A stretch of DNA of 64,000 nucleotides from a virus, in IMG/VR virus record IMGVR_UViG_3300031720_000002, positions 2,667-66,666 of that record, one strand, 5' to 3'. The notes beneath the pieces are model-generated. The model searched no databases. It saw only the letters and a program-made list of their open reading frames with translations, and had not been told where the DNA came from. Below are positions 8,236 to 57,349 of the stretch, one piece after another. How positions within the stretch are numbered: position 1 is the stretch's first letter; every line of letters begins with the position of its first letter. The position numbers were made by a program, and so were the translations under genes.

Positions 8236-8361
8236 GTGCGTACAAAACTGGACAAACAGGTCGATATGTCAAATCCCCAGACCTCCCTGGGGCCACGTTC
8301 GGGCAACATCCGATAGTCCACCAACGGATAAAAATTTGACTGTACACGATATAATAATCTT

Positions 8362-8434
8362 GTTCCGGTAGCTCAAAGGCAGAGCATACGCTACGCGCGC
8401 CAGCATGATGTGGGTTCGAGTCCCACCCGGAGCA
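8362..8434 (+). ncRNA. tRNA-like RNA 1 (degenerate anticodon arm)
   Basis: Acceptor GTTCCGG/CCGGAGC, TA at 8-9, D arm GCTC-AAAGGCA-GAGC, T arm GTGGG-TTCGAGT-CCCAC; no canonical anticodon stem-loop; TATAAT at 8350-8355. Confidence 0.7.
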
Positions 8435-8459
8435 CCGATAAAAATCTTTGTGATTTTGT

Positions 8460-8488
8460 TGGCACTGGGTCATTGCTCCTGTTATTGT
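8460..8488 (+). promoter_or_regulatory. Early-type promoter (phage repeat family)
   Basis: TGGCAC-N17 (ending TCCTGT)-TATTGT. Confidence 0.55.
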
Positions 8489-8527
8489 TGTCATATCAGC
8501 ACGGAACGACAAATGACGGAGGATGCA

Positions 8528-8950
8528 GTGAGCCTTATTGGTAAGCGTGTCGAGTTCGATGTCGCAGCGTTTCCCAAGACCGCGAAGTACGCGGGCCAGG
8601 TCTGGCTCGTACAGCGGAAGTTGCAGGTGAACATCGAGATGCGTCGTGTTGACGCGAGTGGGAACACGTTCGGACCGCTAATGCGCACCCACCCGTCGAT
8701 GGTGCGTGAACTGACCGGCGACACTCCGGCCCCCGTCGTCACGACGACCACGTTCATCCCTCTCGAGTTCGGTTCCATCGTGCGAGTGAACGGCATCTCG
8801 AAGATCGACCCGAGCACGCTGTTCGTCGTCATCCAGGACAAGGGAGTCACCGCGAAGCTCGTCAAGCTCGGCGGCGACAGTGGTCGCTACTGGCCGAACA
8901 TCCCTCGCACCGCACTCACGCTCGTGGACGTGAAGGACATCCTCAAGTAA
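8528..8950 (+). CDS. Hypothetical protein (two small beta-barrel-like repeats)
   Basis: GGAGG RBS before GTG 8528; phage-like codon usage. Confidence 0.6.
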   Translation: MSLIGKRVEFDVAAFPKTAKYAGQVWLVQRKLQVNIEMRRVDASGNTFGPLMRTHPSMVRELTGDTPAPVVTTTTFIPLEFGSIVRVNGISKIDPSTLFVVIQDKGVTAKLVKLGGDSGRYWPNIPRTALTLVDVKDILK

Positions 8951-8979
8951 CACGCCCAGTGGGAGCGTATCCCACACAA

Positions 8980-9061
8980 TGCGAGATCGGCTACTTGGTG
9001 AAGCCGCCGGATGAGCCACCACAGCCATTCGGATACGATGGTTCGACTCCATCTCTCGCAG
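8980..9061 (+). ncRNA. tRNA-like RNA 2 (enlarged anticodon arm)
   Basis: Acceptor TGCGAGA/TCTCGCA, D arm GGCT-ACTTGGTGA-AGCC, stem CCGGA/TTCGG around a 16-nt loop, T arm GATGG-TTCGACT-CCATC. Confidence 0.75.
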
Positions 9062-9097
9062 CGCGCAACACAGCGCACGACGAAGGGACGAAAGATC

Positions 9098-10180
9098 ATG
9101 ACTCAGAGCGTCACGCTCGACGAGGGCGGGAAGAGCGTCCAGTTCACTGACCGTCAGGTTCCGTGGATGAAGCTGGGCAACATCACGGAGGGCGCGTTGA
9201 CCGCGCAGGAAGCGGCGCAGGCAGGTGGCCTGAACTTCACGGTCTCGCTGCACAACGTCCACTTCACCTGCACGGACGAGGACGAGCAGAAGCTAGACGC
9301 GGACTACGTGCGGACGGAGATCATCAAGATCATGGCGCAGCCCATCTTCGACGACGAGAAGACGAAGAAGCTGTGGGAACTGATGGCCTGCACGCGCAAG
9401 ATGACGAATCGCCGCATCGCCGTGCGGGACGACGACCTCACGCCTCTCTCCATCGTCTCCGACGGCTACCCGGTGTTGCAGTATCCGGAGGCGTTCGACT
9501 TCATGGACGGCGCGATCGCCAAGTTCACGAACGAGGGAGCGCGGTACGTCGCCGCGGGTGCCCTCAAGGGCGGCAAGCAGGGATTCATGGTCGTGCGACT
9601 CCCGGAGTCGCTGCAGATCAACGTGCTCGACGGCGGTGACCCGCACGAGATGTTCGCGGTCCTCCGCACGTCGATGGACCTCACTCGCGCGGTCGAGATC
9701 ATGATGATGCCGCTGCGCGGGCTGTGCATGAACCAGCTCACGCTGACGTCCTTCTCTGCCGGCGTGCCGAACCGCTGGGCGGTCCGTCACACCAGCACGA
9801 TGAAGGACAAGCTGATCGAGGCCCAGTCGTCGATGACCAAGATGGACGCGTACGTCAAGCGATACAACGAGATCGTCAAGCGACTGGCCGACATCAAGCT
9901 GAACGACGAGAAGGCCAAGCTGATCCTGGGCCGCGCGTTCGGTCGCATGCAGATGAAGGGCAAGGAGCAGCTGATCGACGCGCTGATCGAGAAGCGGAAG
10001 AACTCGCCTCTCGTCGGATTCGCCGGCACTGGGTGGGGTCTGGTCAACGCTGTGAGCGATCACTTCGACTGGCGGGCGGGCGGCACTCCCGAGTCGAAGT
10101 TCCTGAACGCGCTGCAGGGTCCCACGCACAAGTACATCAACCTGGTCACCACGCATATTCTCCGCACAATGGGCAACTGA
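9098..10180 (+). CDS. DUF932 family phage/plasmid protein
   Basis: PWMKLG...AAQAGGLNFTV, IVSDGYPVLQY, AGALKGGKQ, PLRGLCMNQL, VRHTS, GTGWGLVNAV. Confidence 0.85.
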   Translation: MTQSVTLDEGGKSVQFTDRQVPWMKLGNITEGALTAQEAAQAGGLNFTVSLHNVHFTCTDEDEQKLDADYVRTEIIKIMAQPIFDDEKTKKLWELMACTRKMTNRRIAVRDDDLTPLSIVSDGYPVLQYPEAFDFMDGAIAKFTNEGARYVAAGALKGGKQGFMVVRLPESLQINVLDGGDPHEMFAVLRTSMDLTRAVEIMMMPLRGLCMNQLTLTSFSAGVPNRWAVRHTSTMKDKLIEAQSSMTKMDAYVKRYNEIVKRLADIKLNDEKAKLILGRAFGRMQMKGKEQLIDALIEKRKNSPLVGFAGTGWGLVNAVSDHFDWRAGGTPESKFLNALQGPTHKYINLVTTHILRTMGN

Positions 10181-10190
10181 CATCAACGCA

Positions 10191-10220
10191 GTGGGAGGAC
10201 TTCTTCGGAGGTCCTCCCAT
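10191..10220 (+). terminator. Hairpin terminator
   Basis: GTGGGAGGACTTC-TTCG-GAGGTCCTCCCAT followed by TT. Confidence 0.7.
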
Positions 10221-31145: not shown

Positions 31146-33554
31146 CTAGAACTTGTCGAGATCCGCGAGCTCTGACTCGAGCGTCGCGTACTTCAGCTTG
31201 GGCTTCTTCGTCGCTGCAGAGATGCCGCACGCCATGTCGAGCGCAGCGAGTTCATCGTCCAGACTCATCGTCGTCCGGTCCACGACACCAGCCGCGACGA
31301 GCGAGACCTGCTTACCCTGCGCCAGTGCCGTGCCCACGCGCGGGATCGGGAAGCCCGGAACATTCACGGCTAGAAGTGCAACCATCCGAAGATTGCCACT
31401 AATGCGACGCCAGTCACCAGACAAAGCAGAAGCACGGAGAGCATGCATGTGCTCACTGGAAGTGCCGGGCCGTACGGCGCCCGCAATCCAAATGCCATGC
31501 TCGTCAGTTCCAGCCGTGACATCCGCGACTGCCGTGCCAGTGTCGCCGTAGTGATCGATCGCCCGGGCGAGAGTGACGCCACGAGTTGGCGCGTGCGACG
31601 TGCCGAGCGTGATCTGACCGACCGCGACACTGTGACCCTCCGCAGTGAGCACCTCGCCAGTCGTGAAGTACGAGTAGTCCGGCTCAGCAGGCGGCGTCAC
31701 GCAAGTGTCAGCGAACCCAGTGTGGCATGTTCCCCAACATGCAGCGTGGCCGAACACGCGGCCGTCCTCGGTGACGGTGACCGGTGTCGGGCCATACAGC
31801 TCAGGCTTGCCAAACCACTCGAGCGGAGCGGTAGCAGGGATAGCTGCGGCAACCATCGACTCTGTCTGGAGCGTGAACGCTGGTGCGATCTGGCCGGCAT
31901 CGGTGAAGTGTTGCGCCATGTGGTCGTATGCGTACTTCAGCTGCGTCGTCGTCAGTCCGAACGCGCGTCCCGAGTTGATCGAGCCGATGTGCTTCGCGCA
32001 GGCGACGAGCGATGCGCGGCCAGGCTGACCGTCCTCGTCGATCTCGTGGTGCAGGAAGCGGCACTGCTGACGAGAGACGACATCGTCGATGCCATCCACG
32101 TACGCGAATGCAGCAGCAGCGACGAGACCGTCCAGTTCACCTTCACCCAGTCGCAGCTCGTGCTCGATCGATTTCCACGGCGCATCAGTGACGGAAGCGA
32201 CGACAGCGGAACTCTCGCCCTTCTTCGTCAGCTTGATGGCAGCCTCAACCAACGCAGGGAACGCAACCAGCGTCGCACCACGGAGACGGCCCTTGTGGAA
32301 GATCGTCTTGGTCGGCTTCGCAAAGGGGTCGTTGTCCTCGCCCAACGCGAACTCAAGCTCGACGTCAGCGTCGGTCACCTGATCCGGGTCGACAGAGACA
32401 CCGCCCGCGAAGCCATCGCGGACCTGACGAAACGCACGGAGACCGTCCGGATCGTTGATGTTGAATCGACCCTTGCCCATGATGACTCGCGGGTTCTCAG
32501 GCGAGCGCCACATCTTATCGATGCGACCAGCAGTCACGCTGCCCTTGTGCTCGCCGAGGTTCGACTGCGCCCACTGGAACGGGTGGATGATCGATTCCGT
32601 GTCCTCCCAGGTGAGTGACCCGCCCGAGAACATCCGCTGATCGCCAGTGTCCGTGTCCTCGACGACGAGTGGCCCTTCCCAGCCGCCATCGTACTCGCCG
32701 AGCTCGGCTTCGAGATCCACAGCCGCGTCAGCCGTCACGACATCCACCTCCAGATTCTTCTTGTCGCTGCTGCTTTCCTTGCCACCGGCGGCGACATACG
32801 CAACAGTGTCAGTACTCGCAGTGCCATCATACAACGGAAAGTCAGTCACCTCCCCGCCGAAGGCAACACGCACATGGTCGAAGCGGATGGGACCTTCACG
32901 GTCCTTCAGCTTCTTCACCGTGCCTGAGTCTGACGTGTAGGCGAGCGTAATGTGCGGAATCCACGGCTCGTACTGTGGCGGGTAGTAGTCGCCCAAGTAG
33001 TCACTCGCAATGTTGTCCGCCATCATGTGCGGCTTCTTGAGTTCGTCACCCGAAACGAGAAGGACGACGCACGGCTCCTTCTCTTGGTCTTGGTTGAATG
33101 CTGCCACGCCGAAGCCATCTGCATCAATGATGGGAACGTTCCTCGACATATGACGCACAGACTCGATGATGTCGTTCCGCATCATGGGCGTGATCTTCGC
33201 TGCCTCGCCCAAGTAGCAAAGCGTGAGGTGAAGATCCTCGTCGTCCTCACCACCATCGACGACAAGACGGTTCATGTCGTCCTCACTGGGCAGCAAGGCG
33301 ATCATCGCGCCCGTCTGCTCATCAGCTTCCTCAGCCGCTTCAGACGCAGCGTCCGCAGTGAGGCCGAGTGCAGTGTAATCCCCATTGAGAACACTCTCAA
33401 CCTCAGCGTCGGTAAGTTCACGAGAACCAGACGTGTCTGGTGCCTCGTAGTCACCCTGTTCGTACTGAGCGAATGTGACACCCTGATCCGCCAAGCCAAC
33501 GGGCACGAAAGCCATGTCTGAGCCATTCGCCCAGGGAGGAGTCCATTTTGCCAT
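31146..33554 (-). CDS. 2H phosphoesterase (Acb1/2'-5' RNA ligase-like) fused to capsid maturation protease
   Basis: HLTLCYLG and PHITLAY 2H motifs; GGVSVD...LRGATLVAFPA protease-like; GRVFGHAACW...SGDWR...VNVPGFP C-terminal domain. Confidence 0.8.
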   Translation of the reverse strand: MAKWTPPWANGSDMAFVPVGLADQGVTFAQYEQGDYEAPDTSGSRELTDAEVESVLNGDYTALGLTADAASEAAEEADEQTGAMIALLPSEDDMNRLVVDGGEDDEDLHLTLCYLGEAAKITPMMRNDIIESVRHMSRNVPIIDADGFGVAAFNQDQEKEPCVVLLVSGDELKKPHMMADNIASDYLGDYYPPQYEPWIPHITLAYTSDSGTVKKLKDREGPIRFDHVRVAFGGEVTDFPLYDGTASTDTVAYVAAGGKESSSDKKNLEVDVVTADAAVDLEAELGEYDGGWEGPLVVEDTDTGDQRMFSGGSLTWEDTESIIHPFQWAQSNLGEHKGSVTAGRIDKMWRSPENPRVIMGKGRFNINDPDGLRAFRQVRDGFAGGVSVDPDQVTDADVELEFALGEDNDPFAKPTKTIFHKGRLRGATLVAFPALVEAAIKLTKKGESSAVVASVTDAPWKSIEHELRLGEGELDGLVAAAAFAYVDGIDDVVSRQQCRFLHHEIDEDGQPGRASLVACAKHIGSINSGRAFGLTTTQLKYAYDHMAQHFTDAGQIAPAFTLQTESMVAAAIPATAPLEWFGKPELYGPTPVTVTEDGRVFGHAACWGTCHTGFADTCVTPPAEPDYSYFTTGEVLTAEGHSVAVGQITLGTSHAPTRGVTLARAIDHYGDTGTAVADVTAGTDEHGIWIAGAVRPGTSSEHMHALRASALSGDWRRISGNLRMVALLAVNVPGFPIPRVGTALAQGKQVSLVAAGVVDRTTMSLDDELAALDMACGISAATKKPKLKYATLESELADLDKF

Positions 33555-33571: not shown

Positions 33572-36500
33572 TCAGGCAGACGTGTCCACGTCAATGGCGT
33601 TATCACTGGGTGGAATCACACGGAGTCGCACAGTGACCTTCGTATTGAAGTGTTGACTGTTATCGGGAGCCTTGTTTCCCTCGATGATCTCAACGACACG
33701 ATAGTTGAGGTTAGCACCGAGGAGCATCTCCTCCTCAGAGGGATGCTGTGAGAACGTATCGACGAACGCCATTGGCGTGCCCGGTGGACACTCGATGACA
33801 AAGTTAATTTGACCACTAAACGCACTCTTACCACCGATGCTGGCAGAGAAGAACGCAGCCTGGTGGAAGTCTTCACCGAGGTGACTTTTGACTTCCTCCA
33901 CACTGCTCCATCCCGGGAACCACCCATTACCACGGTGAAGGACGATTGGCTCGAGGCTAAGCTTCATACCCTTCTGCGCGTTCATGACGTCCTTGTGGAT
34001 CTGCGCACTCGCACCACTGTAGCCACGCAAGTAGTCGTTCATCGGGTCATAACTACTACCCGTATACTTACGCAACGCAGTTTTCTGCGTCTCGTTCATC
34101 GGACCCTGTTGCGCGTTCCAATTCGCCGTCATCTGCTTGGCCTTAGCCTCAGTGATGACGGGGAAGTCCTTGCTATTCGACTTCGTCCAGTCGTAGCCCT
34201 TACTCGGGTCGAAGTCCTCAACCTGCTGAAGTGGCGGGCCGACCTTCTCGTCGATCGGCGTATTCGAAGGATGCGCGTACGACGTCCCATACCCACTAGA
34301 GCCGTACGACGAAGACGAGGACGTTGACGCTGGTGACCACGTACCGGCCTTGATCTCCGCAGCCTTCTTCTTGCCGCTTGGAGTGTTGAGCCAGTCAGTG
34401 ACTTTCTGCATGAACTTATGCTCGTCAGCGACGCCGAACTTCTTCGCGCCTTCAGCATCCACATTCGTCAGGATCGCGCCTGGCGTCATGTGAGCGTTAG
34501 CTTTTGACTGCTGCACTGCGTTCCAGTAAATGTCCTCAGGCTTATCCGTGAGGTACTTACCGTACGACGCACCCTTGAACGAGTTGTACAGCGACGTGTG
34601 ATTCGCTAGCGCATCAACCGATGGATCGCCCAGTGCTTCCTCGGGAGTGATGCTTGGACCAGCCGTCGTCGACGAAACCTTCTTCGCGGCCTTCTTCGCG
34701 GCCTTCTTCGTCACTGAGTATGCAGAGAACGGCGGTGCGACCTTCTTCGCGCCGGTCTTCTTCGCCAAACTCGGCGTGAGTGTGGGAATCGCCGGGTTGA
34801 GCTCCTTGAACGCCTTCTGCCCGTTGGGAGTCTTCAGCCACTCCTTGACCTTGTCAGAGTAGGCATTCACCTTGCCGGTCTTGGCCTGCTCCACCATGTC
34901 GAGCGCCTTGAGCAGCTCAGCATCAGACATGCCAGCGATCTTAGGATCGCCGCCCATCTTTGCCTTCGCTGCGTGCATGCTGTGATAGATCTTACTCGCA
35001 GACCAGGCGGGCGAGACTTTCTCTGCCTTGAAGTGGTGGTAGAACTGCGACTTCTGAAGATACGACAGATCCATCGCAGTGGGAGGCGGAGCAACTGACG
35101 CAGGGTACAGCTCCTTCATCGTCTCGAGCAGGTCGTCAACCTGCGCCTTCGAGATGATGCCAGCGTTGTACTTCTCGATCATCTGCTTATACTGCGCGTT
35201 CCCGACGTCGTTGAGCTCGGGATGCGCATCGGGCAGAGGTGCAGGCGACTTCACGACCTTCATGAAGTGCGCGTGCGCATTGTCACTGAGGTCAGACAGG
35301 TACATGTCAAGAACGTCTTGCTCATCAACACTCAGTGAGTGCCACTTCTCGGGAGTGAGGTTCATGATGGCGTCCGCGATCGCTGCGGGCGTGAAGCCAT
35401 CACCCTCACTATCAGCGAAGATGAGATCGTCGACAGTCACCTTCGTGTTGATGACCGGCCCAAGGTCAGGCGTGACGTCAGTCATCTCGTGCACGACGAG
35501 AGGCTTATTCGCGCTGATGACCATCTTCGGGACAAGAAGATCGCCGTTGTTTGTGGACTTAACCAACGAAGTGTGCTCGGCGTCGGAGATCACACCGGCG
35601 TTCAGCAACATCTTAAGACTCTGAAGGATCTTCGTGGGAGTCTCAGTCGACAACTTCGAGGGATCGAGGACAGAGGGTGAGGCGAGATCAGCGGTGTCTG
35701 GTCCGTTCTTCACAAGCTGAAGTTGCTGATACGCTTCCTTTTGCGTCATCATACCCTTGGTGTACTGCTCCCACAGGGTGTTGACCTCACCCATCTTGCC
35801 TGGACCATACTGGCCAATGTCCCACATACTGTCATACTGAGACTGTGTCGGTTCGTTGATCGGCCCGGCGAGGGACGGACCAGGCTCCTTCTTCCACGAC
35901 GCAGACGCTGGGACGTTCTGGCCAACGGCTGCTTTGCCCTCATCCCACGTACCATCGGGGTTCTTCTTGTGAAGCTGAACGACACCTACACCAGCGAAGT
36001 CCTTCTTAGAGAGCTTGTACTTCCCATTGGGCGAGTAGAGATCCTCACCCGTCTTAAGCACGTGCTGAAGAGCATCCTCGGTCTGCAGTGGAAAGTTACT
36101 GTCACCACTCGTGTCCGGGAGATCAGGCAGCGATGGCACATCGATGGGCTCGTTCTTCTTCCACTTCAAGCCCTTCGGCATGTCCTCGTCGGTGAAGAGT
36201 GTCTCTGGCTTATACCATCCACCGTGAGGGGCCTTCGACCACACCGTGACGTTGCCACTCGACTTGCCCTTGGTCAGAAGGTACTTCCCGTTTGTGGAGT
36301 ACATCTTCTCGCCATTGGCCTTGACGAGGTTGTACGCGCCCTTACTGCCCTGTGTGTCAAGCAACCCCACGGGCGCACTTGGCGCATTCGTCGTAGGAAC
36401 ACTCGGTGCGACAGCGCTCCACGTAATACCAACGCCTTCTTGCGTCTTAATTGACGCCTTAAGATCGTCAGCATTAAAGTGCTTATTAGTTTCGTCCCAA

Positions 36501-38560
36501 TTCTTACCGATCTTGTCCCACGTCTGCTCTGACAAGTATCGCTGCCCAGTACCATGCTCAGCCACCACAAGCCGGTACTTATCGTTGCTAGCTGGCCGTA
36601 CACCCTGCGCGACCACAGTGCCAATGGAAGCAGTCTTCGCTGTGTCAAGCAGACTCTTTGCGTCAAATGACGCAACGGGATGTGGAATCGGCTCAGGCGC
36701 AGGCGCGGCATCGAGTGGCGCAGCGTGCGTCGTCGGCGCTTCTTGCTTACCCTTCGGCTCGTGCCACTGCGCGTTCTTGTGGTTCGTTCCCAAGTACGCG
36801 TAGAGCTTACTCTTCTTGAGCTTCTCGTCAGTCGTCCACTTGCCCTCGGCATCAGTCGACTGCACGCGGTATTCAGCGCCGTCCCAAACGATGCGCGTGT
36901 TGCCCTGCTTATTGATCGCGATGACGTCGCCGGGCTCATGCTTTGCGTGAATGAGGCCATGCGTGATCTTCATTGGCGCACCGATGGAAGGTCCCATCGG
37001 TGCGTCGATGGTTGGCGCAGGCGTAGCGATCTGGATCGTCTGCATCATTGCAAGCGCTGTGGTCGCTTCTTTATGCCCTTGGTTATCAAGGATGTCAAGA
37101 AGCACCTGCTGCTCATTATCATTGATCTTGCCCGCGTCATACGCGTTGTAGATCGCATTCTCAGCGAGCTTCTCAGGCGACTTGTTCTTCTCAGCGAACA
37201 ACTCGTTGTCGTAAATGAGTGCGTCAAGATCACTCTTAACGACAGACTCTTCCTCACCATCAATTGCGAGCAAATCGTGTAGGTTACTCGCCTGCGTGGC
37301 AGTAATCTTCCCCGACTTCTCAGCATCGTCGATCTCCTTGTGCACGCCAGTGAGTGGCGCACTGCCCGGGAGAGGCGTGTTCGGATCGAAGATGTTAGTG
37401 TCGTCTTCGCTGAACGACACCATGTTCAAGTCGTCGATGATCTGTTGCGACTTCGCAGCGCCAGGCACGCCCTCCTCGATCGCGTCATCGATGGCCTTCT
37501 CGATCGCGTGCTTCTGCTCGCTCTTGAGGTTGTCCCACTTATTCGCGTCGAGTCCCTTGACCTGCGAGATGAACGACTTCTTATCGTTCTCCGTCAAGTT
37601 CTTGAACTTACTCGCAGTGGAAAGGATGTCCTTGAGAACGTGACCGTACGAGCCCGCCTCGATGAACTTCCCGTCCTTGCCACGCGGATGCTGGACAGGA
37701 TCCCACGCTGCCGTCAGAGCCGAAATCTGGCCGTTGGTATCTACCGCGGAGTCGGTAGAAAGTGTCTCCGGGGAGGTCTGGGAGGCCGTGATTTGGTCTT
37801 CCACATCCAGATCATACAAGGTCGTGCACCGACAAGAGATGATCTCTTCCGGAGCACCCTCGGGATCACCTGGGAACATGAGGAACGACCCACCGACGAC
37901 GAAGTGTGCGTCGATCGGGACTCGCTGACCGTCTGCCGCGTGATGCGTGGGTCGAGTGTGCGAGTCCTCGGTAGCCTCCCACTCCTTCATACCCTGGATG
38001 TCAAAGGCGGAGGCTGCCTCCATCATCTGCTTCCACTCGCCGCCGTTGATCGCAGCGATGACGGTGGTCTGCGCGATGACGTGTGCCTTCTTCGTCTTGA
38101 CCTGCGCCACTTCCTCCACTCGAGTGGCGAGCTCCGCGATCGATTCGCCATCCTGCGCGCCAGTGATGAGTGACGTCTTCGCCGCCTGCCACACGTCGTC
38201 GCCAAACACCGTGACCTTGTTCGCCATCTCACTGATGAATGCCTCAGTCTTGACGACGGGCATGCCACCCAGTGGCGCAACGACGGCCTTCGCGGACTTC
38301 TGCGCGATGACGTTGAGCTCCGGCATGAGACTGCCTGCAACGTACTCGCCCCACTGGGTGGTGATCACACTCAGCGCATCGATGGCGGTGGAGAGCTCAC
38401 CACCGGTCGCAGGTGGAACGTCTCCCGCTGCGACGAGGTGTCCACTGAATGCGTACGACGCAGCAGACGCGCACGCGGCGCGCATGCCCTTCATCATGAG
38501 GGCATGGAACGCGTCGATCTGCTCGTTCACCTGCTCAGCGTTCAAGCCGTGAATCTTCAT
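33572..38560 (-). CDS. MuF minor head protein with C-terminal ADP-ribosyltransferase (polymorphic-toxin architecture)
   Basis: KEWEATEDSHTRPTH...PGDP...ISCRCT MuF domain; HPRGKDGKF; ALRKYT...MNDYLRG, LHRG, FFSAS, EEEMLL R-S-E ART. Confidence 0.88.
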   Translation of the reverse strand: MKIHGLNAEQVNEQIDAFHALMMKGMRAACASAASYAFSGHLVAAGDVPPATGGELSTAIDALSVITTQWGEYVAGSLMPELNVIAQKSAKAVVAPLGGMPVVKTEAFISEMANKVTVFGDDVWQAAKTSLITGAQDGESIAELATRVEEVAQVKTKKAHVIAQTTVIAAINGGEWKQMMEAASAFDIQGMKEWEATEDSHTRPTHHAADGQRVPIDAHFVVGGSFLMFPGDPEGAPEEIISCRCTTLYDLDVEDQITASQTSPETLSTDSAVDTNGQISALTAAWDPVQHPRGKDGKFIEAGSYGHVLKDILSTASKFKNLTENDKKSFISQVKGLDANKWDNLKSEQKHAIEKAIDDAIEEGVPGAAKSQQIIDDLNMVSFSEDDTNIFDPNTPLPGSAPLTGVHKEIDDAEKSGKITATQASNLHDLLAIDGEEESVVKSDLDALIYDNELFAEKNKSPEKLAENAIYNAYDAGKINDNEQQVLLDILDNQGHKEATTALAMMQTIQIATPAPTIDAPMGPSIGAPMKITHGLIHAKHEPGDVIAINKQGNTRIVWDGAEYRVQSTDAEGKWTTDEKLKKSKLYAYLGTNHKNAQWHEPKGKQEAPTTHAAPLDAAPAPEPIPHPVASFDAKSLLDTAKTASIGTVVAQGVRPASNDKYRLVVAEHGTGQRYLSEQTWDKIGKNWDETNKHFNADDLKASIKTQEGVGITWSAVAPSVPTTNAPSAPVGLLDTQGSKGAYNLVKANGEKMYSTNGKYLLTKGKSSGNVTVWSKAPHGGWYKPETLFTDEDMPKGLKWKKNEPIDVPSLPDLPDTSGDSNFPLQTEDALQHVLKTGEDLYSPNGKYKLSKKDFAGVGVVQLHKKNPDGTWDEGKAAVGQNVPASASWKKEPGPSLAGPINEPTQSQYDSMWDIGQYGPGKMGEVNTLWEQYTKGMMTQKEAYQQLQLVKNGPDTADLASPSVLDPSKLSTETPTKILQSLKMLLNAGVISDAEHTSLVKSTNNGDLLVPKMVISANKPLVVHEMTDVTPDLGPVINTKVTVDDLIFADSEGDGFTPAAIADAIMNLTPEKWHSLSVDEQDVLDMYLSDLSDNAHAHFMKVVKSPAPLPDAHPELNDVGNAQYKQMIEKYNAGIISKAQVDDLLETMKELYPASVAPPPTAMDLSYLQKSQFYHHFKAEKVSPAWSASKIYHSMHAAKAKMGGDPKIAGMSDAELLKALDMVEQAKTGKVNAYSDKVKEWLKTPNGQKAFKELNPAIPTLTPSLAKKTGAKKVAPPFSAYSVTKKAAKKAAKKVSSTTAGPSITPEEALGDPSVDALANHTSLYNSFKGASYGKYLTDKPEDIYWNAVQQSKANAHMTPGAILTNVDAEGAKKFGVADEHKFMQKVTDWLNTPSGKKKAAEIKAGTWSPASTSSSSSYGSSGYGTSYAHPSNTPIDEKVGPPLQQVEDFDPSKGYDWTKSNSKDFPVITEAKAKQMTANWNAQQGPMNETQKTALRKYTGSSYDPMNDYLRGYSGASAQIHKDVMNAQKGMKLSLEPIVLHRGNGWFPGWSSVEEVKSHLGEDFHQAAFFSASIGGKSAFSGQINFVIECPPGTPMAFVDTFSQHPSEEEMLLGANLNYRVVEIIEGNKAPDNSQHFNTKVTVRLRVIPPSDNAIDVDTSA

Positions 38561-45660: not shown

Positions 45661-45683
45661 ACACAAACGCACCGAGCCATGCG

Positions 45684-45759
45684 TAGCGGCGGGCGGATTT
45701 GAACCACCGATCTCAGACTTATGAGGCCTGCGAGGACGACCGAGCTCCTCTACACCGCT
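45684..45759 (-). tRNA. tRNA-Met(CAT), initiator-like, no encoded CCA
   Basis: AGCGGTG/CGCCGCT acceptor, GAGG/CCTC D stem (A11-U24), CAGGC-CTCATAA-GTCTG, GGTGG-TTCAAAT-CCGCC. Confidence 0.92.
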
Positions 45760-56444: not shown

Positions 56445-56486
56445 CATCTCAAGCACAGCATGACCCCCAAGACAAAGGACGAACAG

Positions 56487-57125
56487 ATGAGCGACAGCGT
56501 GACCATCAACGACGAGACGTTCGAGATCGTCGGCCGCGAGAAAGCCGTCACCGACGAGACGATGACACCCATCGCATCGATGCAGGGCAAGGAGTTGCGG
56601 TCGGTCGACCGTATCCTTCTCGCCGACGAGCGAGAACTCTTCCAGTGCGTGCACGCGGCCAACCCGAACTGTGGCTACACCGCGAACACGATTCGCAGCG
56701 TCACCGCGCACCAGCGCACGCACAGTGGGGCAGCCGTCGCCAAGCAAAAGCAGGCCGAAGTCGACGCGGCGAACGAGCGTGCCGCAGCTGCGGAGCAGGC
56801 ACTCAACGAGCGGAAGCAGGCAGCGAGCGACCGTGCCAAGAAGGCGGCCGCGACGCGTGAGAGCCGCAAGTACGATAAGAACGATGAGGTCGCGGCTCCG
56901 ACGACGACGACGACCAACGTCAACGCCGCGAGCAAGGAAGTCACGCTCCTCATTCAGCGAGTGCAGCTCACCGCGAACGCGGTGGACGACGCCACCGAGG
57001 CACATCGCAAGGCGGTCCTCAACCTCGTCAAGTTCATCAACGACCACCCCGCGGTGGACCCGCAGATCATCGCCAAGGCCAAGCAGTACGACGTGCTCAA
57101 GGCCGCGCTCAACGGCGCCGTCTGA
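56487..57125 (+). CDS. C2H2-like Zn finger plus coiled-coil protein
   Basis: FQC...NCGY...HQRTH; AAGGA RBS. Confidence 0.7.
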   Translation: MSDSVTINDETFEIVGREKAVTDETMTPIASMQGKELRSVDRILLADERELFQCVHAANPNCGYTANTIRSVTAHQRTHSGAAVAKQKQAEVDAANERAAAAEQALNERKQAASDRAKKAAATRESRKYDKNDEVAAPTTTTTNVNAASKEVTLLIQRVQLTANAVDDATEAHRKAVLNLVKFINDHPAVDPQIIAKAKQYDVLKAALNGAV

Positions 57126-57210
57126 GCTACAGTTACCACAGCGTAATTCGCACAGAGGCCGGCGGCGATTCAACTCGCCGCCGGTCGTGGGGCAGAACGG
57201 AGGTGAGCCT

Positions 57211-57240: not shown

Positions 57241-57278
57241 TTTAGCTTACTTAGGCCGGCGATCCCATTCCCACAACT

Positions 57279-57349
57279 GAGACGAAGTCCTCCTGGTGGA
57301 GGAAGGGCAACTCGAGCCCGGGTGGTAGGTTCAATTCCTGCTCGTCTCG
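57279..57349 (+). ncRNA. tRNA-like RNA 3 (6-bp D stem, non-canonical anticodon loop)
   Basis: GAGACGA/TCGTCTC acceptor, TCCTCC-TGGT-GGAGGA, GGGC-AACTCGA-GCCC, GTAGG-TTCAATT-CCTGC. Confidence 0.7.

Follow-up and report, generated by a model that had tools for sequence, protein, structure and literature searches.

Plant mitochondrial t-elements are the closest described counterparts of the element studied here. As set out by Forner et al. 2007 (PMC1920247), they are non-canonical cloverleaves with a GGTTCRANYCC T arm, at which cuts by RNase P and RNase Z make mRNA ends; 5′ cleavage by RNase P and 3′ cleavage by RNase Z are proposed in that report and in some cases shown, and an excised t-element can persist as a small RNA. 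In soil bacteria and phages, irregular or allo-tRNA-like sequences that appear tRNA-Sec-like to covariance models have been reported (Mukai et al. 2017, PMC5389517), and an IMG/VR-wide survey lists tRNA-like candidate structured RNAs that fall outside standard tRNA calls (PMC10690425). Organellar tRNA-like processing signals, irregular soil tRNAs with another geometry and unnamed IMG/VR candidates are known already, and full-text literature searches yielded no description of hairpin-bracketed, non-decoding, tRNA-like intercistronic modules in phages. Here, we analysed a window of 64,000 nt, bases 2667-66666 of a 66,666-bp IMG/VR virus record that is rated complete (IMGVR_UViG_3300031720_000002), and focused on RNA 2, an 82-nt, non-decoding tRNA-like element recognised by its sequence and its fold (8980-9061; all features are on the + strand of the window unless stated otherwise). 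We propose, at a probability of about 0.5, that RNA 2 is a t-element-like module that is excised by host RNase P and RNase Z and leaves hairpin-capped mRNAs.

RNA 2 carries the sequence features of a t-element, namely a non-canonical cloverleaf with a conserved T arm (GGTTCGACTCC at 9040-9050) and a place between co-directional open reading frames (ORFs), in what is presumably a co-transcript as in the mitochondrial case. The t-elements of PMC1920247 are a system with mapped ends in an organelle, whereas RNA 2 resides in an actinobacterial phage and has predicted ends. Unlike the t-elements as that report describes them, RNA 2 has a short hairpin on either side, 4 nt from one predicted cut and 1-2 nt from the other, and its slot alternates with a true tRNA-Glu in relatives. 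The allo-tRNA-like sequences described in PMC5389517 are likewise derived from soil metagenomes, sometimes in tandem and possibly not used in translation, but they have an 8/4 or 9/3 geometry and normal 7-nt loops, whereas RNA 2 has a 7/5 geometry and an aberrant arm. The candidates of the IMG/VR survey are presented in PMC10690425 without an assigned function or flanking architecture.

The acceptor stem of RNA 2 (TGCGAGA/TCTCGCA, 8980-8986/9054-9060) is Watson-Crick paired at 7/7 positions. The D arm (8989-9005) has a 4-bp stem, GGCT/AGCC, and the loop ACTTGGTGA with GG, and the T arm is GATGG-TTCGACT-CCATC (9037-9053). The variable region is 4 nt, and the discriminator G (9061) is not followed by an encoded CCA. 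At the anticodon position, a 7-bp stem with one G.T pair (CCGGATG/CATTCGG, 9007-9013/9026-9032) closes a 12-nt loop, AGCCACCACAGC (9014-9025), which carries an AGCCA direct repeat (AGCCA-CCAC-AGCCA). A first-pass annotation of this DNA had described a cloverleaf with this extended stem, and both the sequence and the fold bear it out; the 16-nt loop given there is the reading with a 5-bp stem, and it shortens to 12 nt with the full stem. In the 16-nt reading the sole T stands at the first position, and a U33 is therefore impossible. Both the minimum free energy (MFE) structure and the centroid are this cloverleaf (-33.4 kcal/mol, z -3.83, 0/200 shuffles equally stable), all 23 of its pairs are intact in the window copy, and it is kept when RNA 2 is folded with its context (171 nt). 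A G18G19-like GG and TTCGA are both present, and pair 3:70 is C-G, not G3:U70. The proposed structure is backed by thermodynamics and analogy, not by covariation.

RNA 2 shares its acceptor, D and T arms, its tertiary-contact nucleotides, its lack of CCA and its co-directional setting with canonical tRNA genes embedded in operons (RF00005). More precisely, it has the 7-bp acceptor, the D arm with GG and the 5-bp T stem with a TTCRA loop of a tRNA; it lacks the 5-bp anticodon stem and the 7-nt loop with U33 and a readable anticodon, having instead the 7-bp arm and the U33-less 12-nt loop. ARAGORN at default settings called only 8362-8436 and 45683-45759 and left RNA 2 uncalled, as it did when introns of up to 50 nt were allowed at default thresholds, and Rfam at gathering score matched only the same two elements. 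At lowered thresholds, ARAGORN reads RNA 2 as tRNA-?(ccac), or as Ala(agc) with a 9-nt intron if introns are allowed; such settings give from 78 calls (80%, no introns) to more than 200 (introns) in 66.7 kb, and we therefore treat these calls as noise. The top Rfam match of RNA 2 (8979-9061) is tRNA-Sec (RF01852), at 18.9 bits and an E-value of 0.88. Our criteria for tRNA-Sec were an 8/5 or 9/4 acceptor/T geometry, a 6-bp D stem, a long variable arm, UCA and at least 47 bits, and the assignment was rejected on the score, the 7/5 geometry, the 4-bp D stem, the 4-nt variable region and the absence of UCA. Assignment to tmRNA was rejected as well: ARAGORN finds none, 3:70 is C-G and the length is 82 nt. 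Compared with a phage attachment site (attP), RNA 2 is a whole cloverleaf with both acceptor strands, not a partial tRNA, and there was no integrase among 45 proteins scanned, with small ORFs scanned in part. A coding reading, in which an ATG at 9011 would extend the downstream DUF932 ORF, was rejected. The relatives of that protein all begin at MTQS with a conserved ACGAAGG upstream, and the region of RNA 2 is therefore non-coding; the sequence at the place of the putative extension is unrelated among relatives.

RNA 2 lies between an ORF of 145 amino acids (8513-8950; G+C at third codon positions 0.74), for which IMG/VR offered no relative and Pfam and PHROG no family, and a DUF932 gene of 360 amino acids (9098-10180; PF06067, 3.4e-30), the conserved neighbour of the tRNA slot. 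The gaps are 29 nt from the stop codon (8948-8950) to RNA 2 and 36 nt from RNA 2 to the DUF932 start. Within the first gap stands hairpin A, GTGGGA-GCGTA-TCCCAC (GTGGGAGCGTATCCCAC, 8959-8975; -10.3 kcal/mol, z -2.9), followed by the 4-nt spacer ACAA (8976-8979), just as the first-pass annotation had noted, and the predicted RNase P cut would fall at 8979/8980. The second gap contains a small hairpin after the discriminator, GCGC-AACACA-GCGC (9063-9076; z -1.95), and the Shine-Dalgarno-like GAAGGGA of the DUF932 gene (9082-9088), where ACGAAGG is conserved in relatives. A consensus scan found a promoter-like site only upstream of the ORF (TTGGCA-18-TATTGT with TG before the -10, 8459-8488; a consensus match only) and no terminator between the genes. 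The stretch homologous to this site is conserved in two related contigs (L003, L004), and the site is likely the start of the transcript carrying ORF 8513-8950, RNA 2 and DUF932. From this layout we infer that the upstream ORF, hairpin A and RNA 2 are forced into one transcript, because the 29-nt gap leaves no room for a promoter and none is called there; hairpin A would therefore belong to the precursor.

We then compared the slot upstream of DUF932 in related phages, which were found by a DUF932 search followed by an alignment search in IMG/VR and metagenomes. Ten slots whose DUF932 proteins are 52-74% identical were included (window, L003, L004, L005, L009, L010, L030, L032, L036, L038). 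Three of them (L003, L009, L010/L034) hold a canonical tRNA-Glu(CUC); between these three, the acceptor, anticodon and T stems have diverged through compensatory changes, which serves as a positive control for the evolution of a functional tRNA here. Only aberrant tRNA-like elements occupy six others (window, L004, L005, L030, L032, L038), and no tRNA-like element was found in the slot of L036. The aberrant elements vary widely: the L004 slot holds a second RNA 2 copy and a 150-nt element with G3.U70, and the other slots hold elements of 93 nt with a 6-bp stem, a 3-nt loop and a long extra arm (L005), 71 nt with an 8-9-nt loop (L030), 104 nt with a 6-nt loop and two extra hairpins (L032) and 107 nt (L038). 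L009 has a 61-nt D-armless element after its tRNA-Glu. The versions of 100-150 nt in some relatives are elaborately folded, with GNRA-type tetraloops. Beyond this slot, the complete relative G003 has a 65-nt element with a 4-nt 'anticodon' loop before another gene, and in G002 the position corresponding by homology to the slot of RNA 3, a further element of the window, is taken by a 94-nt tRNA-like gene.

Fourteen aberrant elements were parsed, and all keep 6-7 of 7 acceptor pairs, 4-5 of 5 T-stem pairs and a TTCRA loop, while the loops of their central hairpins measure 3, 4, 6, 6, 8-10 and 12 nt. This list is curated and not an unbiased census, because the skeleton scanner, run at 6/7 acceptor pairs and long spans, gave evident false positives that were removed by eye (E09, E11-E14, E16, E17, E19, E22, E24) and overlooked L030, L032, L038 and, in L004 and L009, the second element; these were added by eye and re-parsed. 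Rfam in E-value mode gave only four tRNA matches in eight related loci, and none of the aberrant elements therefore falls into a described family. The acceptor/T/elbow region of a tRNA is what RNase P, RNase Z and the CCA-adding enzyme recognise. The aberrant elements have thus kept what these enzymes read and lost what the ribosome reads.

Among more distant DUF932 relatives (~40-47% identity), no tRNA-like element was found in the loci compared. Separately, in a low-GC phage whose DUF932 is 24% identical (L095, 2326-2500), a 69-nt non-decoding tRNA-like element lies 65 nt upstream of DUF932, in the order 14-bp hairpin, few nt, element, another hairpin, DUF932; it scores 38.2 bits against the RNA 2 model.

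Hairpin A recurs 3-4 nt before six different tRNA or tRNA-like elements (window, L005, L009, L017, L030, L038). In an alignment of seven hairpin sequences, 42/42 cells are paired and L036 shows one compensatory A-U to C-G change, with a shuffle control that is weak (62/500). The upstream neighbour of hairpin A is always the stop codon of an ORF, and these ORFs are not all homologous. Other hairpins, of 10-14 bp, end 3-4 nt before the 94-nt element of G002, a tRNA-Met and the 65-nt element of G003, and the element of L095. On the downstream side, a covarying hairpin of 4-5 bp follows the discriminator, as GCGC...GCGC in six slots (window, L003, L004, L005, L030, L032) and as GTAGC...GCTAC instead in L009 and L038; the conserved ACGAAGG and the start codon come next. 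MAFFT misaligned L009 and L038 at this downstream hairpin, and the comparison is given without a pair count.

Slots preceded by a promoter instead of an ORF (L003, L004, L010) have a different structured leader. In these leaders (L003:2770-2848, L004:3650-3732, L010:1990-2073; promoter TTTACA/TTGCAC ... TAnAAT), a closing helix surrounds two hairpins whose loops share GGAAGCAAGC and whose stems covary between contigs, forming an unnamed conserved motif. The exact 17-mer of hairpin A also occurs without a tRNA in an unrelated phage group of eight near-identical contigs (L015, L016, L018, L020-L022, L026, L027), where it is intergenic and followed by an AT-rich stretch and then a gene, and it is found in 3 other contexts. 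Folding the 171 nt pairs a conserved ACGCCC ahead of hairpin A (8953-8957) with GGGACG (9085-9090), which overlaps the Shine-Dalgarno-like site of DUF932; should this pairing be real, that gene's ribosome-binding site would be released once RNA 2 is excised.

Based on the observed structure, genomic layout and comparative pattern, we propose that one message would start at the promoter-like site and run through the ORF, hairpin A, RNA 2 and DUF932. Host RNase P would cut at 8979/8980 and RNase Z after G9061, the latter because no CCA is encoded, and the two cuts would split the message in two. The upstream mRNA would end in hairpin A with a 4-nt tail, a poor footing for 3′ exonucleases, and the DUF932 mRNA's 5′ end would lie 1-2 nt before the small hairpin, which may shield it from 5′-end-dependent RNases. 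The slot would then be a general 'tRNA punctuation' site of the phage clade, filled by a true tRNA-Glu(CUC) in some members, and where decoding is not needed any element with the acceptor/T/D skeleton would suffice. We favour a processing module because of the short, fixed hairpin distances on both sides, the alternation with a true tRNA and the forced co-transcription; given the tRNAs and look-alikes at the same slot in relatives, RNA 2 most likely marks a cut site for host tRNA enzymes. The first-pass annotation had pictured anticodon-less tRNA mimics serving as mRNA punctuation and/or released decoys. Its set of anticodon-less elements held up, and so did a recurrent leader made of a hairpin and 3-4 nt (six elements), whereas the leader it took to be shared with RNA 3 did not.

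Phage tRNA genes are usually discussed only as decoders, in terms of codon supply and escape from anticodon nucleases. The clade of soil actinophages described here keeps non-decoding tRNA bodies at fixed intercistronic slots, with hairpins at fixed short distances. If these are processing modules, the phages would set mRNA boundaries and stability through host tRNA maturation enzymes, a logic known from mitochondria. Some 'pseudo' or 'undetermined' tRNA calls in phage annotation would then be functional cis elements, and the series hairpin, tRNA-like element, hairpin would offer compact natural parts for operon engineering in Actinobacteria.

To see how RNA 2 itself is conserved, we compared the window with the copy in G002, which is identical at 80/82 positions, and at 25/26 within the anticodon arm. 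The adjacent DUF932 genes share 75.7% DNA identity (78.5, 84.1 and 61.1% at codon positions 1, 2 and 3), and even at the second-position rate at least 79/81 matches would arise with P ~1e-4. The two differences are C9019G in the loop and G9058A, a change of pair 3:70 to C.A. In a second sample, run X2, there is a strain that is ~99.6% identical over 8300-10200, with 7 single-base differences (among them 9031, 8564 and 9148); G9031A lies in the anticodon stem and again gives C.A, in one contig at depth 3.6. Among sequencing runs, no RNA run was found to contain the region, and the DNA contigs compared showed strain differences only. The flanks of the G002 copy differ from those of the window, with another leader type upstream and a second element downstream, and recent lateral transfer of the cassette therefore accounts for the identity no less well than selection. 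Exact scans of IMG/VR gave 0 matches for the T-arm/acceptor 24-mer of RNA 2 and for a 21-mer of RNA 3, and a pattern scan with the anticodon stem and a free loop found G002 only. The D-arm 18-mer matched G002 and L110; the latter match (1378-1395) is at the start of an HNH-like gene and was judged to be due to chance. The covariance model of RNA 2 matched G000 and G002 and no others among five related records, and in 70 loci it gave one real match (L095) and five weak ones with E >0.5. For RNA 2 itself, structural conservation comes down to two copies and one strain variant.

Several of these observations, and some others, weigh against a processing module. RNA 2 is known from two phages and one strain variant, and both stem changes seen in it break pairs to C.A, with 0 compensatory changes. 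The intactness of the aberrant elements is partly ascertainment, because the scan demands an intact acceptor and T stem. RNA 1, another tRNA-like element of the window, and RNA 3 have no adjacent hairpin. Under strict hairpin criteria (6 bp or more, no more than 1 G.U, loop 3-13, end 2-5 nt upstream; background 5.0%, 954/18,992), the independent sequences that qualify are just two, hairpin A and the G002 hairpin, which is not significant alone. Under long-stem criteria (8 bp or more, no more than 2 G.U, loop 3-30, end 2-6 nt upstream; background 3.2%, 190/6000), 4 of 12 counted independent contexts qualify, with a binomial P of 4e-4 that is only indicative because the data had been seen before the criteria were set. 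With just 4 nt between hairpin and cut, the RNase P protein may be impeded in binding the leader. In addition, punctuation alone leaves unexplained both the 25/26 identity of the anticodon arm beside a 76% identical neighbour gene and the elaborate 100-150-nt folds of some relatives.

The alternative that survives best is a decaying tRNA pseudogene, a relic of a working phage tRNA with no selected function that may still be trimmed out, in which the anticodon arm was wrecked, for example, by slipped duplication (AGCCA-CCAC-AGCCA). We consider it somewhat unlikely. The AGCCA direct repeat fits this origin, as do the disruptive nature of both stem substitutions, the rapid turnover of slot contents with loss of the tRNA altogether in L036, and the rarity of RNA 2, which was found in 2/5 related records by model and in one other IMG/VR contig by pattern. 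However, 23/23 cloverleaf pairs are intact and the anticodon stem has 7 bp rather than merely 5, and no 9-nt deletion restores a loop with U33, given the single T at the first position. The 80/82 identity to G002 also exceeds the second-codon-position identity of the adjacent gene (84%; P ~1e-4). Moreover, at least 14 independent aberrant elements keep their acceptor and T arms, paired central arms and loops of other than 7 nt, a pattern that is partly due to ascertainment.

RNA 2 could instead work in trans after its release, as a decoy or sponge that engages either a host factor binding tRNAs or a defence nuclease directed against them, or as a scaffold presenting its CCA-rich 12-nt loop (GCCA-CCA-CA-GCCA). 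The near invariance of the anticodon arm and loop (25/26) between two otherwise diverged phages would suit such a role, the large structured inserts with GNRA-type tetraloops in relatives go beyond what a cleavage signal needs, and a virion protein with an RNA-ligase-like region hints at an RNA-level conflict with the host. Nevertheless, we regard it as unlikely. Within the window the loop has no perfect complement other than itself, and no target was found: 22 near matches (2 with one mismatch, 20 with two) bring the total to 23 against 7 expected, an excess that we read as codon bias, and none of them is singled out in a leader. A decoy for an anticodon nuclease would be expected to keep the recognised anticodon loop, and the near-identity to G002 may reflect recent lateral transfer, as the flanks differ. 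The central parts are wholly different among relatives at the same slot, so that no common trans target is evident. A trans-acting role keeps some weight, perhaps besides processing, because punctuation explains neither the inserts nor the near-invariant loop.

One way to combine the two is a clade-wide tRNA-scaffold RNA system, in which excision would both free trans-acting RNAs and cut the message into hairpin-capped mRNAs; this appears doubtful. In such a system, the acceptor/T/D body would be kept for excision by host RNase P and RNase Z, perhaps with addition of CCA, and diverse structured inserts would take the place of the anticodon arm, ranging from a 3-12-nt loop to extra hairpins totalling up to ~100 nt. 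The released RNAs might serve as decoys for tRNA-targeting defences or other tRNA-binding host factors, and the capping hairpins would sit 2-4 nt from each cut. That RNA 2 is a functional tRNA of an unusual kind, carrying a short intron or acting as a frameshift, quadruplet or suppressor decoder, is very unlikely: the low-threshold readings tRNA-?(ccac) and Ala(agc) with a 9-nt intron and the CUA-anticodon tRNA of G003 speak for it, but such thresholds give 78 to >200 calls whereas the default with introns of up to 50 nt gives none, no U33 is possible, there is neither a G3:U70 nor a long variable arm for anticodon-independent charging, and we know of no decoding architecture with a 7-bp stem and a 12-nt loop. 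A review of non-canonical tRNAs (PMC7609411) likewise describes, in the part that bears on this, no decoding architecture of that kind.

The genome has three aberrant elements (8362, 8980 and 57279) beside one regular tRNA, and the set of anticodon-less elements that had been noted earlier thus stands, with more in relatives. A crude skeleton scan of both strands of the 66.7 kb gave 10 matches, of which the 6 whose T loop is TTCRA map without exception to four elements (8362, 8980, 57279 and 45685 on the - strand); an encoded CCA is present in 0/4. The tools call RNA 1 (8362-8434; ARAGORN, Rfam) a tRNA-Ala(cgc), although its anticodon stem is mismatched at 2 pairs, A stands at position 33, and the 'Ala' label is not matched by a G3:U70. 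Compared with L003/L004, whose intergenic region aligns apart from this element, RNA 1 is inserted, and a short direct repeat, AATCTT ... AATCTT, brackets it (8355-8455), which suggests that tRNA-like cassettes may be gained by insertion. A YrlA/Y RNA-like assignment (RF02553) was rejected, as its sole weak match was in the RNA 1 region (8381-8482) at 18.1 bits against a gathering score of 69, and no TROVE-like family (Ro) was found among the 45 proteins scanned, with ORFs scanned in part.

RNA 3 (57279-57349, 71 nt) also folds into a cloverleaf that is its MFE structure, with a z of only -1.82 and 9/200 shuffles equally stable. It has a 6-bp, tRNA-Sec-like D stem with a 4-nt D loop, and a 4-bp anticodon stem with the loop AACUCGA (A33); its top Rfam match, tRNA-Sec, reaches 32.9 bits where the gathering score is 47, and it has no variable arm and no UCA. 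Like RNA 2, it lies between co-directional ORFs, as had been stated before. The leader hairpin that the first-pass annotation had assigned to both elements is not confirmed here: GTGGGG (57187-57192) and TCCCAC (57269-57274, followed by 4 nt) are 76 nt apart, and the 88-nt fold that they would close is at shuffle level (z 0.00, 93/200) and absent from the centroid of a larger context. A 12-bp GC-rich hairpin (57157-57186) follows the ORF 56460-57125 and stands 92 nt before RNA 3, and in G002 the 94-nt tRNA-like gene begins 3 nt after its homologue. The only regular tRNA of the genome is a canonical tRNA-Met(CAU) (45683-45759, - strand; ARAGORN, Rfam). In G003, a 60-bit tRNA with the anticodon CUA (C1:51935-52006, L111:536-607; amber-suppressor-like, labelled Pyl by ARAGORN) apparently has two U.U oppositions in its acceptor stem and adjoins the tRNA-Met, which is preceded by a hairpin of 12-13 bp.

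Family scans of the phage genome, which has a G+C content of ~60%, identified a WhiB-like regulator, glycosyltransferases, methyltransferase-like proteins and a holin, together with virion and packaging genes (tape measure, major tail, major head, portal, terminase) and replication genes (primase/helicase, family A DNA polymerase, thymidylate synthase). The WhiB gene and the base composition point to an actinobacterial host, and to an uncultured soil actinophage. Megablast of 8300-9300 against cultured phages gave zero matches, no close cultured phage is known from these comparisons, and blastn of 8945-9097 against the same set gave only a 24-nt T-arm match to two enterobacterial phages. On the function of DUF932, the literature as far as covered offers nothing. 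The virion protein with the RNA-ligase-like region has 802 amino acids (31146-33554, - strand; PHROG 2659, residues 65-243) and also contains portal/protease-like parts. It adjoins a protein of 1662 amino acids (33572-38560, - strand), in which MuF-like head morphogenesis parts are joined to an ADP-ribosyltransferase-like region at the C-terminus.

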